A stretch of 32,000 nucleotides of DNA from an uncultured archaeon (GCA_964510585.1 CAZECW010000075.1:1-32000); one strand, 5' to 3'. Positions 15,467 to 28,719 are shown, counted from the stretch's first letter. Made by a program: numbers and translations. Notes: generated by a model not told the origin, from the letters alone.

Positions 15467-15922
15467 CTAAAAATTGTTTTTGTGGGTGTTTTCCTCTTTA
15501 TCTTCTTTTATTGTCAGTAGGTTTTCTGAGCCGTCTAGAATTGTTTTGTAGTCTTCGATGAAGCCTCTTCCAATGGTGAGTAATTTATTGTCCTTGAATG
15601 TTGTCACTACTGTTAGGAGAGTTAGAGGCCCCATTTCAACTTTCGCGTAGGAGGATAGTAGTTTTTTCTTTTCCCCCGACACGGTAACTCCCCGTTGTGA
15701 GAAGATGTCTGGAAGCTGACAGTTTTCCAATTTTAGCTCTGTATAAGTTTTCCAGGGTATTAGTATCATTCCGTCGAATCCCGTGTCAAGGAGTGCAACT
15801 ATTTCGGTTTTCTCTCCGCTAACAAAGTTTGATATTTTAATCTTGACTGCTGGAGATAAATAGTTGAATCTTTCATCAATGTATGGTTGCTTGTATACTA
15901 CTCTATTTGTAGGCTTGTTCCC
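15467..15922 (-). CDS. Retropepsin-like (clan AA) aspartyl protease; catalytic region lacks a canonical start
   Basis: Extending the listed 15467-15769 ORF upstream gives PAVKIKISN..KTEIVALLDTGFDGMILIP and later IGRGFI. The frame is open to 15979 with no ATG/GTG/TTG before the DTG. Confidence 0.8.
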   Translation of the reverse strand, partial: GNKPTNRVVYKQPYIDERFNYLSPAVKIKISNFVSGEKTEIVALLDTGFDGMILIPWKTYTELKLENCQLPDIFSQRGVTVSGEKKKLLSSYAKVEMGPLTLLTVVTTFKDNKLLTIGRGFIEDYKTILDGSENLLTIKEDKEENTHKNNF

Positions 15923-16302
15923 CCCAAGTAGATTTCTTTGGGTTGTTTGAGGAATTTTTCCGTAATCCTTATAATTATTCTATGTTTGACGTCTCTCGAC
16001 AGTTTGAGCTCCTCGGCAGAGTCAGCAACTATCGTATTTCCATTCTCAAAGGCCACCCATTTCCCCACGTAGTTTCGGAAAAGCTCATCTTTCATCTTTT
16101 CAAACGCTAGATTGTTTTTCTCTAACTCTCTGCGATACTCTTCCGCCCCAACCCAGTCATCCAAAGTTCTGTCAACAGCCCTAGAGATATTCCCATTACT
16201 AGTAGTGGTATTTACAGTTCCCTTAGCTCCTGTCGACTCAGCCTCACCCTTCTTGGTTCCCCAAAAAATGGAAGAGTCTTTAACCCTCGAATGTTCTATC
16301 AA
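15898..16302 (-). CDS. DUF5678-like domain protein with low-complexity N-terminus
   Basis: NNLAFEKMKDELFRNYVGKWVAFENGNTIVADSAEEL; TTG start 1 nt after the upstream stop. Confidence 0.7.
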   Translation of the reverse strand: MIEHSRVKDSSIFWGTKKGEAESTGAKGTVNTTTSNGNISRAVDRTLDDWVGAEEYRRELEKNNLAFEKMKDELFRNYVGKWVAFENGNTIVADSAEELKLSRDVKHRIIIRITEKFLKQPKEIYLGGTSLQIE

Positions 16303-16303
16303 T

Positions 16304-16537
16304 TTACTCTTCCTCCTTAGGAGAACTAACAGAGATGACTGTTTGCGACCTCACTAAATAATCTGGCTCACCTGTTAGAGGATCTAAATCATCCAACTCG
16401 TATACCTTTAAAACAACGGGTTTAACCCGCAAAACTTTTCCATTTTCCAGCCGGAAATCACTCCACTCTTCACGCACAACACGGAATCCCACTTCGACGC
16501 CATTCACTTCTCTCCCGTCCGGAAGCTTTAAACTCAT
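16304..16537 (-). CDS. Small beta-rich hypothetical protein
   Basis: EEWSDFRLENGKVLRVKPVVLKVY..DPLTGEPDYLVRSQTVI; TATA-like GTTAAATA about 60 nt upstream; start 16537 or 16546. Confidence 0.75.
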   Translation of the reverse strand: MSLKLPDGREVNGVEVGFRVVREEWSDFRLENGKVLRVKPVVLKVYELDDLDPLTGEPDYLVRSQTVISVSSPKEEE

Positions 16538-16789
16538 AAACCACATCCGTCCAAACCTACACAGTCAACTTCAGACTATCTCAACCCCGAATCGTATTTA
16601 ACTCTTCTCATCTACAATTTCATTTCGCAGAACCCTAAAAAGCGTCCCATCGAATCAAATTGCAGACAATAAAAAATACTGGCAAACTATCATCAAGATC
16701 GACTGATTTATTTCCGAATTGAAAAGTTTTCTGATTAAACCGCTACCCTCTTTTTGAAACACACTTCTTGAACATTTCTTCTTCTGGTT

Positions 16790-17005
16790 TTAATGGGTGA
16801 GGATGGCTTTACATTCTTCGCCTAAGCCTTGGAGGAGATCCCAGGAGTCGTTTTTGGTTCCCTTCGTCTGCATTGTTCTCACGTCTTGGCAAATGGGCAT
16901 GATCATTCGTTTAAGGATGTGTTGAGGTGTGGGTTCGTATGGTCTGAGGGAGTGCTCTATGAGTATTTTGAAGTGGCCTAATGTTCTTTTCACAATTCTG
17001 TTCAA
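16790..17005 (-). CDS. Small hypothetical protein coupled to RHH gene
   Basis: TTGA 4-nt start/stop overlap with the upstream gene. Confidence 0.5.
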   Translation of the reverse strand: MNRIVKRTLGHFKILIEHSLRPYEPTPQHILKRMIMPICQDVRTMQTKGTKNDSWDLLQGLGEECKAILTH

Positions 17006-17550
17006 TATAATACCTCCACATGTCCCTCTCTCACAATAACACTGAACCTGTCCCTAGCTAGCTTGATTTTTATACCTAGCTGCTTTAGTAATTTTTCGGC
17101 TATGGAAATCTTTTGTTTCCTGTTCAGAACAGCTTCCAGAAGGAAGCAGCCCCCACCACCCGTATATAAAGAAGCGGTTTCGAGTTCCGCCATAAAAGTG
17201 GGATTCAGAAACACATCCGTCATTTCTCCACATTTTGACCTTGCTAATTCTGCGGGAAGTTTTAACTCCACCTCCTCCTCACCATGCAGATAACTGTACA
17301 CAACGTTGCTCGGTTTAAGGACATCTATGAGAATTTCCATCAACTCTGGAACCAGTTTTTCTGGAACTTCGAAACTCATGCCACTTGATGTGGTGCCCAC
17401 ATACATTTCGGGGTCAGGGCTAAGCCAGTTGAAGAGAGCATTGGTAACTGAACGACTGAGACTCCCTTTCCTTGCCCCGTACAAGACACCTGCCTTAGAC
17501 CTCACTTTCTCCTCAAGATCGTCGGGAAGAGCCACTTTGATATACTTCAT
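17002..17550 (-). CDS. Ribbon-helix-helix domain fused to unknown C-terminal domain
   Basis: MKYIKVALPDDLEEKVRSKAGVLYGARKGSLSRSVTNALFNWL matches the archaeal RHH pattern. Confidence 0.7.
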   Translation of the reverse strand: MKYIKVALPDDLEEKVRSKAGVLYGARKGSLSRSVTNALFNWLSPDPEMYVGTTSSGMSFEVPEKLVPELMEILIDVLKPSNVVYSYLHGEEEVELKLPAELARSKCGEMTDVFLNPTFMAELETASLYTGGGGCFLLEAVLNRKQKISIAEKLLKQLGIKIKLARDRFSVIVREGHVEVLY

Positions 17551-17574
17551 AAAAATCATCCGGTAAATTTCTCA

Positions 17575-17856: not shown

Positions 17857-18297
17857 ATGAAAGCCTATATGGTAGAAAAAATGAAGGAAAGGAAGGAAAA
17901 TTACCTTCGCAAAATTCAATTTGCTCAAGATAACATTAAATCCGTTAAAATGTGGCTGACAGGAATAACGCTTGAAAAGTTTTTGGACGATAAGAAGACA
18001 CGCTATGCCGTGTTTAAGGCCTTTCAGGAAGTGGTAGAAACCTGTATGGATTTGGCGGCTATGCTGGTTAAAGATCGTGGAATTCCACCCAAAGATGATT
18101 ATACCAATCTGGAGAAGTTAAGAGAAGAAAAGGTAATATCTGGCGAGATGGAGGATATTTTAGCGGAGGCTAATGGTCTACATAAATGGATAATCCACAG
18201 ATACAATAAGCTGGATGAAGCAGAAGCCTACAAAGCGATGCTTAGACTCATAACTCCCCTAGAGGGATTCATAGGAGTTGTAAAAAAGTGGATTTAG
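17857..18297 (+). CDS. hepT: HEPN/DUF86 (HepT-like) toxin with altered catalytic motif
   Basis: RYAVFKAFQEVVETCMDLAAMLVKD..PKDDYTNLEKL..ANGLHKWIIHRYNKLD; true start may be 17869 or 17881. Confidence 0.85.
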   Translation: MKAYMVEKMKERKENYLRKIQFAQDNIKSVKMWLTGITLEKFLDDKKTRYAVFKAFQEVVETCMDLAAMLVKDRGIPPKDDYTNLEKLREEKVISGEMEDILAEANGLHKWIIHRYNKLDEAEAYKAMLRLITPLEGFIGVVKKWI

Positions 18298-18671
18298 TGG
18301 AGAAAATTAAGAGGGATTTCGGATTTCTGACCGATCGCCGTGATGTTCTAGCTGTGCTTCTTTACGGCTCTCAGGCTTCAGGTGAGTCCACTCCGAGGAG
18401 CGATGTTGATATCTGCATTGTAGCCCCGAAAGCAGACCGTGACGAGCTTTTTAGAACAATTTTGAGGCACGTTAGAGAACCTTATGATGTCAAGATATTT
18501 GAATCTCTACCAATGTACTTGAAAATTCAGGTGATCAAAAACCACATCGTAGTCTATGCAAGAGAGATCCTAGACCTGTACGAATACTTCTACACCTACA
18601 GGAAACTCTGGAAGGATCAAGAGAGGCGGAATACACTAACAAAAGAAGATATAGAAACCCTCCTCAAATGA
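18288..18671 (+). CDS. mntA: Minimal nucleotidyltransferase (MntA-like antitoxin)
   Basis: LLYGSQASGESTPRSDVDICIV (GSx10DxD) and YDVKIFESLPMYLKIQVI; overlaps the HEPN gene. Confidence 0.9.
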   Translation: MDLVEKIKRDFGFLTDRRDVLAVLLYGSQASGESTPRSDVDICIVAPKADRDELFRTILRHVREPYDVKIFESLPMYLKIQVIKNHIVVYAREILDLYEYFYTYRKLWKDQERRNTLTKEDIETLLK

Positions 18672-26536: not shown

Positions 26537-27907
26537 ATGGATGGAGGATGGTTGGATAAACAGTTATCTAAAAAATTTGTGAAGCAGGTTAAAAAAAGGA
26601 TTCCATGGATTGACCATTTGATTGAGGATTATTCTACTGCTTTGGAGTTTAACCCGGAACTCATAGATTATTCTGTGCCTAAGCAGTCTGTCTGTCTTCT
26701 GTGTAGGGGTACAAGGATGTTGTGTGGAAAAAAGAAGTGTCCTCTGCTTGAGCGTTTTTATAGTTATGTTAGGGTGTCGAGGAGTTTTGATGGAACTCAG
26801 CTGGTTGGTGATTCTCCGCCGAGTGCCTTTGTGGGTAGAAAGGGGTATCCTTATGTTTATGCTGGTCCGATGGTTCCTCCGGAGAGGGGTGACACCAGTA
26901 TTTATGATGTTCCTGAGTTATGGTATGGGAAGGATGTGGAGGAGATAATTGGTTTTAGATGCAAACTGGTGCGGGGTATGTTTATCACAGATGTTAGGGA
27001 TGCCAACTCGGATAACAAGTTGCTTAGGGATACCAGGGAACTGGCTCTTGCTGGTGAGCCTGTGGACGCTGAGGTTATATTGAAGAAGAAGCCTAAGCAT
27101 CGCCTTTTGCTATCTAGTGAGGTGCAGCCTATGGGCCCCTCCGCGCCCCTTGAGAACATTAACATTGGGTCGTTGAAGGTGCCAAAAATTGTGGATAAGG
27201 TGTATTTTGACACTGATCTTAAAGCCCTTGATGGGATGTTGATGCTCTACGAGAATGGTTTGCCTGTTACCAGGATACAGCGGATTTTGAGTGTTGGCGC
27301 TATGGGAATTAAAGATAATAGGAAATTGGTGCCCACCAGGTGGAGTATTACTGCTGTGGATAGCAATATCTCCAAATTTTTGAGGGAAAACGTGAAGGAT
27401 TTCCCATTGATTAATGATTATTTGGTGTATGAGGCGGATTATCTTGATAACAGGTTTGTTGTTCTTATGATGCCGAGGCCTTGGAGCTACGAGTTGATAG
27501 AGGCATGGTTTCCGGGCACTTTGTGGAACCCTGATAGGGAGCATGTGGGTATGGCTGCGGATTGGGAGCCATATTGGGGTAGAACTACTTATGCCAGTAT
27601 TGGGGGATGCTACTACGCTGCTAGACTTGCGGTTACGGAGCATCTTCTTCGGGAGAGGAGGCAGGCATCTGTAGTTATTTTCCGAGAAACGCTTCCTGGA
27701 AATTTGATGCCTCTGGGGGTGTGGCTGGTTAGGGAATGTGTGAGGGATGCTTTAAGAAGGGAACCGGTTAAGTTTCAAACATTGGAGGACGCTCTTCAAC
27801 ATGTTAAAACTCGGCTTCGCATTGGTATGAAACATTGGTTGCAGGTGAGTGGGGTATTGTCTGAAGTTAGGAAGCAGCGTTTATTAACTGAGTTTTTAGG
27901 GTTTTAA
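26537..27907 (+). CDS. nreA: Nre family DNA repair protein
   Basis: CLLCRGTRMLCGKKKCP, SPPSAFVGRKGYP, LVPTRWSITAVD, GGCYYAARL and C-terminal PIP-like QRLLTEF. Confidence 0.92.
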   Translation: MDGGWLDKQLSKKFVKQVKKRIPWIDHLIEDYSTALEFNPELIDYSVPKQSVCLLCRGTRMLCGKKKCPLLERFYSYVRVSRSFDGTQLVGDSPPSAFVGRKGYPYVYAGPMVPPERGDTSIYDVPELWYGKDVEEIIGFRCKLVRGMFITDVRDANSDNKLLRDTRELALAGEPVDAEVILKKKPKHRLLLSSEVQPMGPSAPLENINIGSLKVPKIVDKVYFDTDLKALDGMLMLYENGLPVTRIQRILSVGAMGIKDNRKLVPTRWSITAVDSNISKFLRENVKDFPLINDYLVYEADYLDNRFVVLMMPRPWSYELIEAWFPGTLWNPDREHVGMAADWEPYWGRTTYASIGGCYYAARLAVTEHLLRERRQASVVIFRETLPGNLMPLGVWLVRECVRDALRREPVKFQTLEDALQHVKTRLRIGMKHWLQVSGVLSEVRKQRLLTEFLGF

Positions 27908-27909
27908 CC

Positions 27910-28719
27910 TTGATTGAGGAAGTTAAAGAAGTTTTTTGTAAGGGAATTTTGAGTAGGAGCGGAATAGGTGGTGTAGACTATTCCATTAATCCTTATACTG
28001 GCTGTTCTCATGGCTGTGCATACTGCTATGCCCGCTTCATGTTGAGGTATGCTAAGACTAGGCAGCCCTGGGGAAAATTTGTCCACGTAAAAATTAATGC
28101 CCCCACGGTATTAATGAAGGAAATTAAGGGTAACATGTGGGGGACGATTCTTTTAAGTAGTGTTTGTGACCCTTATCAGGAGCTGGAGAAAAAATATGAG
28201 ATTACTAGGAAAATTTTGCAGGTAATTTCCAAGCATAACAATTTTAAAGTTGACATTTTAACCAAGTCAGATCTAATAGTGAGGGATTTGGACATAATAA
28301 AGAAAATAAAAAATGTTGAGGTGGGGTTCTCCATCTCTCATTTCGATGAGGAGTTTAGGAGAATATTTGAGCCCGGAGCGCCCAGTGTTGAAAAAAGATT
28401 CCATGCCTTAGAAACCCTAAACAAAAGTGGGGTTGACACGTATGTTTTTGTTGCGCCAGTCATTCCACTAATCACTGAGAGGCACATGGAAAGTATACTG
28501 GAGAGCGCTGAGCGCTGCCATGCGAGGTACCTGTTTTTCGACACACTAAATATCAAGTGCGGGAACTGGAAACCCATTACCGCAGCAATGGAGAAATATG
28601 AACCAAAGATTCTTCCACGCTTTATAGAAGTGATGGAAAAACCAGAAGGATACTACTCACAATTCAAAGAAAGAATCTTAAATATGTGCAATAACTTACC
28701 CTGCAGTTTTACATTCTAA
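27910..28719 (+). CDS. Radical SAM protein, spore-photoproduct-lyase-like family
   Basis: SINPYTGCSHGCAYCYAR, SSVCDPYQ, ILTKSDLIVRDLD and FEPGAPS. Confidence 0.9.
   Translation: MIEEVKEVFCKGILSRSGIGGVDYSINPYTGCSHGCAYCYARFMLRYAKTRQPWGKFVHVKINAPTVLMKEIKGNMWGTILLSSVCDPYQELEKKYEITRKILQVISKHNNFKVDILTKSDLIVRDLDIIKKIKNVEVGFSISHFDEEFRRIFEPGAPSVEKRFHALETLNKSGVDTYVFVAPVIPLITERHMESILESAERCHARYLFFDTLNIKCGNWKPITAAMEKYEPKILPRFIEVMEKPEGYYSQFKERILNMCNNLPCSFTF

Follow-up and report, generated by a model that had tools for sequence, protein, structure and literature searches.

A retropepsin-like protease gene with no standard start codon in an Asgard archaeon: near-cognate initiation or ribosomal frameshifting?

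How is an aspartic protease made when its reading frame offers no standard start codon ahead of the catalytic motif and overlaps the end of the preceding gene in the -1 frame? The question is raised by a locus within a stretch of 32,000 nucleotides (the window; GCA_964510585.1 CAZECW010000075.1:1-32000) from an uncultured archaeon, which the names on close homologs place in the Asgard archaea, lineage Freyarchaeia/Jordarchaeia. Retroviral gag-pro is expressed by -1 frameshifting, and a first-pass annotation of the window had proposed that this protease is likewise reached by programmed slippage on a run of G. We do not favour that mechanism, because the second repeated base of the heptamer (Y) is G, no stimulator and no fused homologs were found, and the junction lengths seen in relatives do not suit a -1 slip. 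We consider it probable, with considerable reserve, that the protease is a separate gene translated by coupled, Shine-Dalgarno (SD)-directed, weak near-cognate initiation at a codon that is ACG in relatives and ACA in the window.

Below, G000 denotes the window's own genome, G001 that of a sister species and G002-G005 other genomes of the genus; X1-X4 are hot-spring metagenome runs, X4 carrying a 96%-alike strain, and P-numbers are homologous proteins or their clusters. Codons of the protease frame are numbered from the catalytic Asp, so that -41 lies 41 codons ahead of it. The features of the locus, together with two sets of genes cited further on, are collected in Table 1.

Table 1. Positions of the features discussed (window coordinates unless a contig of G000 is given)
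Feature	Position	Strand	Remark
80-aa ORF of no known family, first of a likely three-gene unit	16304..16546	-	no Pfam match
DUF5678-like partner gene, 134 aa, TTG start, TAG stop	15898..16302	-	
G6 run, in the Leu-Gly-Gly codons of the partner; likely SD site of the protease	15920..15925	-	
Heptamer G_GGG_GGA, correctly phased	15925-15919	-	within TTG GGG GGA at 15927-15919
Codon -41, inferred start site, ACA in the window	15908..15910	-	9 nt behind G6
Partner stop codon TAG	15898..15900	-	overlaps GTA (codon -38) of the protease frame
Clan AA (retropepsin-fold) aspartic protease, about 147 aa from codon -41	15467..15910	-	frame open from 15979
Catalytic D-T-G motif of the protease	15779..15787	-	
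A-rich spot near the 3' end of the protease gene	15520..15527	-	intact in the window; frameshifted in G001, G003 and X4
ACG start of SepRS	G000:C187:56612 (L079:813)		orthologs L083-L090
Housekeeping genes with a displaced N-terminus	C18:16059-17010, C18:21390-23037, C187:96773-98006 and C187:84699-85431 of G000	-	reverse-strand offsets

The layout first described for the locus was confirmed when the sequence was re-read. On the minus strand, the first ATG of the protease frame (15769) lies behind the D-T-G motif, and ATG, GTG and TTG are all absent from the open frame ahead of the motif, so that the protease cannot be made from a standard start. The heptamer is phased as claimed, and the zero-frame TAG follows six codons on; the partner thus ends with Tyr-Leu-Gly-Gly and six further codons. 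A -1 slip at the heptamer would give a partner-protease fusion of about 278 aa by hand count. Upstream of the partner, the TAA of the 80-aa ORF lies one base ahead of the TTG of the next gene; its homologs fall in unnamed clusters (0.92), and the ORF is present in G001 and broken in G003.

The sequence at the junction is not an artefact. The assembled contigs of X1-X4, four of the 11 listed runs, all agree on the G run and are free of indels there; the X1 and X2 contigs may themselves be the source of the window DNA, and X4, with 50 differing letters in 1201, is an independent strain that also lacks an indel at the run. G001 has the same G6 and the same -1 overlap, again with no standard start. 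A homopolymer error, which the first-pass annotation had allowed for, is therefore excluded. Its second caveat, a recent inactivating indel, is excluded by the startless layout common to a clade of 67-99% identity and by purifying selection on the protease; a recent single indel splitting a former fusion was rejected as well, since the layout is clade-wide and a whole fusion was never found.

The startless proteases form one clade (support 100/99 in a tree built on 60 of 116 aligned rows). Gene calls place the start of representatives of all eight close protease clusters (74-96% identity) at internal or spurious codons, many of which fall past the catalytic Asp. The N-terminal region is nevertheless intact in the sequence of P0015, gap-free and 74% identical by hand count, and Val at -37 and Tyr at -36, both beyond the partner's stop, are kept in G000, G001, G003 and P0015. 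Between G000 and G001, dN/dS is 0.15 for the protease (dS 0.22, Fisher p 4e-6) and 0.11 for the partner; the N-terminal 31 codons of the protease alone give 0.45, which is not significant. The low protease ratio and the clade-wide layout argue together that the protease has been translated despite the absent standard start. As first proposed, it is probably made below the level of the partner.

Broken protease alleles are common at the tips of the tree. The gene of G003 is a multiply frameshifted pseudogene, 3' frameshifts occur in G001, G003 and X4, the D-T-G is lost in P0017/P0019, and the N-terminus is replaced in P0008/P0023-26. With the window query, no protease ortholog was found in G002, G004 or the complete G005. 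As expected, such frequent breakage at the tips fits an accessory gene with turnover.

That the protease is genuine, as first annotated, is borne out by a retropepsin-fold model and by the purifying selection described above. The AF2 model started at -41 has a pLDDT of 91, and its best Foldseek matches are the Rickettsia retropepsin 5c9f, Ddi1 and the HTLV-1 protease (E 2e-4 to 5e-4); the D-T-G motif is at least 90% conserved in the 116 aligned sequences. In this model residues 3-9 form strand 1 (pLDDT about 89-93), which places the start at or before about -39. The protein matches TIGR03698 with E 7.5e-8 and 32.6 bits, below the curated cut-off of 57.35 bits. It is thus a clan AA protease related to the AF_0612 family and is not filed in that subfamily. 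Like the AF_0612 family, or COG5550-type pSNCAPs, as described in the accessible part of PMC2642776, it has a single retropepsin domain with DTG[FY], about 140 aa and stand-alone homologs; unlike them, it scores below the cut-off, is paired with an RHH-DUF5678 gene and belongs to a clade without a standard start. The same part of that source treats AF_0612-type peptidases as little studied.

For the partner, the label 'DUF5678-like' is fair. It reaches 15.2 bits against DUF5678 (PF18929), where the gathering cut-off is 23.2, and all 11 of its close relatives match weakly too. Among 31 aligned partner homologs, 15 match DUF5678 at E <= 0.01 (best 1e-11) and seven match a FitA-like ribbon-helix-helix (RHH) domain, for which the window partner has no match; its residues 1-48, with pLDDT < 50, stand in place of the homologs' N-terminal RHH. 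The C-terminal tail YLGG-x-SL is conserved. It also ends the partner of a sister lineage (P0043), as YLGG-S-SLR, despite a normal TTG protease start there, which indicates that the YLGG and S-L-R residues are conserved at the protein level.

We also asked how the pair is arranged in distant relatives. When 400 genomes of the phylum were searched with a profile, 35 gave matches; the census retained 37 distinct distant pairs in which the motif is intact, the protease full-length and an ORF present upstream. Not counted were the startless clade, duplicates, loci that are truncated or run off a contig (L015, L056, L060-L062) and matches in which the motif pattern is missing. The window's own pair did not come up in a genome-wide pair scan, its partner being missing from the gene set. 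It had been suggested that homologous loci be scored as fused, separately started or overlapping, and the outcome goes against the frameshift proposal: in all 37 pairs the protease has its own start (ATG in 16, TTG in 18, GTG in 3), placed between codons -29 and -47 (median -39), and no pair is fused. The -1 frame relation is found in 23 of these pairs and an NTGA overlap in 16; in the -1 pairs the frame is open for 3-35 codons ahead of the protease start. A -1 overlap with an open frame is thus ordinary for this gene pair, a translational-coupling geometry and not a mark of recoding. Of 236 representatives, the best 150 include no protein of about 280 aa; three that measure 182-193 aa show no partner fusion in their sequences, and a weak search of 1180 longer proteins found no whole fusion either.

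In the sister lineage P0043, which is 44% identical without gaps, the protease has a Leu-type (TTG) start at -36 overlapping the partner's stop. One member of this cluster, P0213, is an in-frame partner-protease deletion chimera that lacks the first strands of the protease. Elsewhere in the sister lineage, P0073/P0211 have a transposase fused into the protease. A scan of metagenome contigs yielded two distant loci only. G000 itself carries two further pairs, at C48:3616-4038 (L014) and C59:3359-3733 (L075), with ordinary GTG and TTG starts. Among the papers listed by our literature search, which covered sources other than subscription journals and supplements, none dealt with the DUF5678-protease pair.

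Under the near-cognate reading that we prefer, ribosomes finishing the partner, or recruited by G6, would start at codon -41 and give a stand-alone protease at a low level; the ACA allele of the window would be weaker still or recently silenced, and the conserved C-terminal tail of the partner would probably serve to bind and restrain the protease. The 16S tail of the genus ends GGAUCACCUCCU, with which G6 pairs at -8.5 kcal/mol (SD sites of the homologs, -3.1 to -10.7); codons -42 and -41 are the only ones that G6 precedes by an SD distance. GGGGG serves as an SD in G000: in 1963 genes it stands 6-11 nt ahead of ATG at 20 sites, 11 of them at 9-10 nt, and control windows give 3 and 2. Codon -41 also falls within the range of the homolog starts, close to their median and five codons ahead of the sister-lineage start. 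Two of three testable features of a near-cognate start, SD spacing and codon position, are therefore present.

The identity of the codon is clearer in relatives than in the window. It is ACG in G001 and G003, and also in the lineage of about 70% identity, a deduction from P0015 and P0193, which were read against each other in the two frames; the remaining four clusters are represented by their amino acids (S-L-R) alone. ACG is kept although CGA, the codon it imposes on the partner, makes up only 8% of Arg codons. It may in part be a by-product, since S-L-R is kept in the sister lineage with its normal TTG start. An ancestral ATGA overlap at -41 was considered and is unsupported, as the sister lineage starts at -36 and the partner keeps S-L-R. 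An internal ATG five codons before the Asp in G001, G003 and X4 was likewise rejected; it is Ile or Arg elsewhere, and a start there would drop in-frame conserved strands.

Sequence comparisons indicate that ACG is used as a start codon in the genus. The SepRS gene (TIGR00470) has an SD and ACG in all six genomes of the genus, and ATG at the same codon in three of three genomes of the sister family. A NusA-like gene (G000:C18, about 6860, minus strand, L091) has ATA in G000 and G001 where G002 and G005 have ATG. Altogether, 186 genes of G000 with coding signal ahead of the first standard start contained 68 SD-placed codons, among which ACG (4 observed, 0.35 expected), ATA (10 and 2.3) and CTG (7 and 0.9) are in excess; ACA was not seen (0 and 1.3). 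Opposite 111 genes of G005 with an SD and ATG, G000 has ATG in 92, TTG in 6, GTG in 6, ACG in 2, ATT in 1, ATA in 1 and other codons in 3, and never ACA (1.2 of the 3.6 Mb of G005 was covered). ACA differs from AUG by two mismatches.

The ACA allele is shared by X4, whose Gln codon in the partner frame implies it, and the protease still looks constrained in the strains that bear it. Between the window and X4, the listed changes in the protease are 11 synonymous and 8 non-synonymous (p 0.001). On the window's own branch, polarised by hand with G001 and G003, 5 of 7 changes are synonymous (p 0.011), or 6 of 10 when the tail and one ambiguous site are included (p about 0.02, by hand), with 6 of the 46 window-X4 differences outside those displayed. 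If selection continued after the change from ACG to ACA, then either ACA works weakly, or a start at the stop codon is used, or the protease is reached by a slip that needs no start.

The last of these, low-level -1 ribosomal slippage (or +1 G transcriptional slippage) on G6 giving the Gag-Pro-style fusion, is the strongest of the alternatives, and we regard it as unlikely. It keeps its standing chiefly because the window has ACA instead of ACG; in the protease frame the ACG to ACA change is a silent one, and selection seems to persist afterwards. The heptamer is moreover phased and the run unusual: G_GGG_GGN occurs in the last 27 codons of only 4 of 2773 genes of G000, while any phased heptamer occurs there in 580. 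The G6 survives in G000, G001, X1-X4 and the P0015 lineage; only in the pseudogene of G003 is it interrupted. That a G run can slip is possible in principle, as low-level frameshifting on a G7 run is described for the herpesvirus thymidine kinase in the accessible part of PMC5009743.

Against slippage, three of the five features of a -1 frameshift site that we tested fail. The Y base is G, where the available part of PMC8211752 gives A or U as usual. Downstream structure is lacking: in windows of 40-100 nt from G000 and G001, folded at 37 and 60 C under a model limited to structures other than pseudoknots, z ranged from -0.5 to +2.0, the RNA was essentially unfolded at 60 C, and no stem-loop lay 5-9 nt downstream of the heptamer in either genome. 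Fused homologs are absent from each of the three sets described above, the sole fused protein found being the P0213 deletion. YLGG is moreover conserved at the protein level, and of 467 occurrences of Leu-Gly-Gly 41 contain G6 in any case. A second slippery candidate, G_GAA_AAA in Thr-Glu-Lys codons, is absent in G001 and G003 and was discarded.

Conservation of the slippery site points both ways. The phased heptamer persists in G001, in X4 and in the P0015 lineage, its phase is changed in 7 of the 12 members of the P0037 cluster, and a G run of six or more occurs in one of the 37 distant pairs. The seven junctions that a -1 slip would not serve weigh against slippage. These 12 show four types of partner tail: the standard one (3 members), a tail one base shorter at the run (5) or two bases longer there (2), both of which put the protease beyond -1 reach, and a form in which an insertion farther upstream brings back the standard ending (2). 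An in-frame junction allele was not seen among them, and all of their tails leave codon -41 near G6. One of the seven, P0193/P0015 (neighbours by accession), combines a shifted junction with an intact protease. This evidence is soft, because the P0037 lineage has many broken proteases; the alleles may be neutral decay or assembly noise.

The locus resembles retroviral gag-pro and the fucA1 gene of Saccharolobus (A_AAA_AAT; accessible part of PMC8211752) in having an upstream ORF with a phased heptamer, and gag-pro also in its clan AA protease in the -1 frame. It differs from both in its G-only heptamer without a stimulator and in that the homologs are two genes and not one split gene. We think it rather doubtful that the lineage lost a coupled start codon and then expressed a cellular retropepsin by a G-run slip, with the run length acting as a rheostat between strains. 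Were this true, it would be a cellular -1 frameshift at a non-canonical G_GGG_GGA without an RNA stimulator, and would add to the single archaeal -1 case named in the available part of PMC8211752 (2021).

Termination-reinitiation at a non-standard codon, either at the stop (GTA in GTAG; ATA in ATAA of G001) or at ATT (-31), is less likely again. The stop (-38) sits where homologs have NTGA overlaps, GTAG can also be deduced in the lineage of about 70% identity, ATA is used as a start in G000, and coupling requires very short distances according to the accessible part of PMC10666635. Yet the SD distance is wrong, with -4.7 kcal/mol at 18 nt for -38 and no pairing for -31, and GTA is never SD-placed in G000 (0 against 1.4 expected). 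The ATT, raised in the first-pass annotation as a non-canonical start, is Val in P0015, and starting there would cut off the predicted strand 1.

It is very improbable that the protease has been silent throughout the clade, as an old start-loss pseudogene behind an intact partner. The broken alleles at many tips are what such silence would leave, but the dN/dS between G000 and G001, the intact frames across 71-96% identity and the gap-free N-terminal region of P0015 contradict it; silence of the ACA allele of the window alone is already allowed for under near-cognate initiation. Hardly credible, finally, is C-to-U editing at the one C that the two frames have in common, which would turn the partner's CGA or CAA into a stop in an ideal four-base overlap, make AUG or AUA of the protease's ACG or ACA, and so rescue the ACA allele, since we know of no mRNA C-to-U editing in archaea, the ATA and CTG starts of G000 show relaxed selection without editing, and the partner tail beyond the codon is conserved.

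We return to near-cognate initiation at codon -41. ACG and CUG starts are known in eukaryotes and their viruses. The codons concerned there are, as in the genus studied here, one mismatch from AUG, and in SepRS ACG replaces ATG across the genus; the initiation proposed here differs in being SD-directed and in an Asgard archaeon, and the codon of the window is the two-mismatch ACA. Among archaea, near-cognate sites appear in Haloferax ribosome profiling (accessible part of PMC7261190), and the available part of PMC7531240 makes no mention of near-cognate starts. Archaeal termination-reinitiation coupling, as far as the accessible parts of PMC6728339 and PMC10666635 describe it, likewise has the downstream gene overlapping in the -1 frame, with its SD within the gene ahead, and is typical of heteromeric partners; in place of an NTGA overlap, the start proposed here would be a near-cognate codon lying 13 nt within the partner gene. 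Within the same literature scope as above, no paper on ACG starts in Asgard archaea was found.

The locus is probably one more, less clear-cut instance of near-cognate initiation in Asgard archaea. Such starts are genuinely used there, gene callers truncate the proteins concerned, and a gene that seems to lack a start and overlaps its neighbour in the -1 frame can pass for a programmed frameshift. The junction offers a natural allele series (TTG in the sister lineage, ACG, ACA and several lengths of the G run), which suits side-by-side tests of archaeal start-codon stringency and G-run slippage.

The RHH-DUF5678 and retropepsin module as a whole is widespread and apparently unstudied, with weak starts and frequent loss. 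Judged from the sequences, it suggests a toxin-antitoxin-like arrangement of a protease with its inhibitor or regulator, in view of the RHH-bearing partner, the tight coupling, the patchy presence, the frequent breakage, the weak protease starts (non-ATG in 21 of 37 distant pairs) and a nearby HepT/MNT pair. That pair, a HepT-like RNase and a nucleotidyltransferase (MNT) of type VII toxin-antitoxin-like character, lies 1.5 kb from the protease unit (window 17857-18671, plus strand), both members scoring just under the NCBIfam cut-offs. A search for defence systems (PADLOC) gave only weak generic aspartyl-protease hits (E 0.004 and 0.012), and a scan for sigma-70 promoters and terminators, which is unsuited to archaea, stayed at chance level. 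Two ORFs of 185 and 71 aa without a Pfam match (window 16790-17559, minus strand) are kept beside the protease unit in G003. Farther along the window, an archaeal Nre gene is followed by a radical SAM gene (26537-28719, plus strand).

Several other genes of G000 have possible non-standard starts or interrupted frames. An enolase-like gene (C56:6909-8148, plus strand) carries TCG after a strong SD, at the position of a TTG in G005; a two-mismatch start, or a start at an ATA three codons on, is possible. The frame of an RtcB-like gene (C58, about 3764, plus strand) breaks off close to the N-terminal part, at a position shared by G000 and G005, and a conserved motif resumes after the insert, possibly through an intron or a conserved frameshift. 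In several housekeeping genes (Table 1) the N-terminus is either in a different frame or separated by a stop, in one or both of G000 and G005, and these are candidates for protein-gene introns or frameshifts. Besides NusA, G000 holds further candidates for ATA, CTG and ACG starts.
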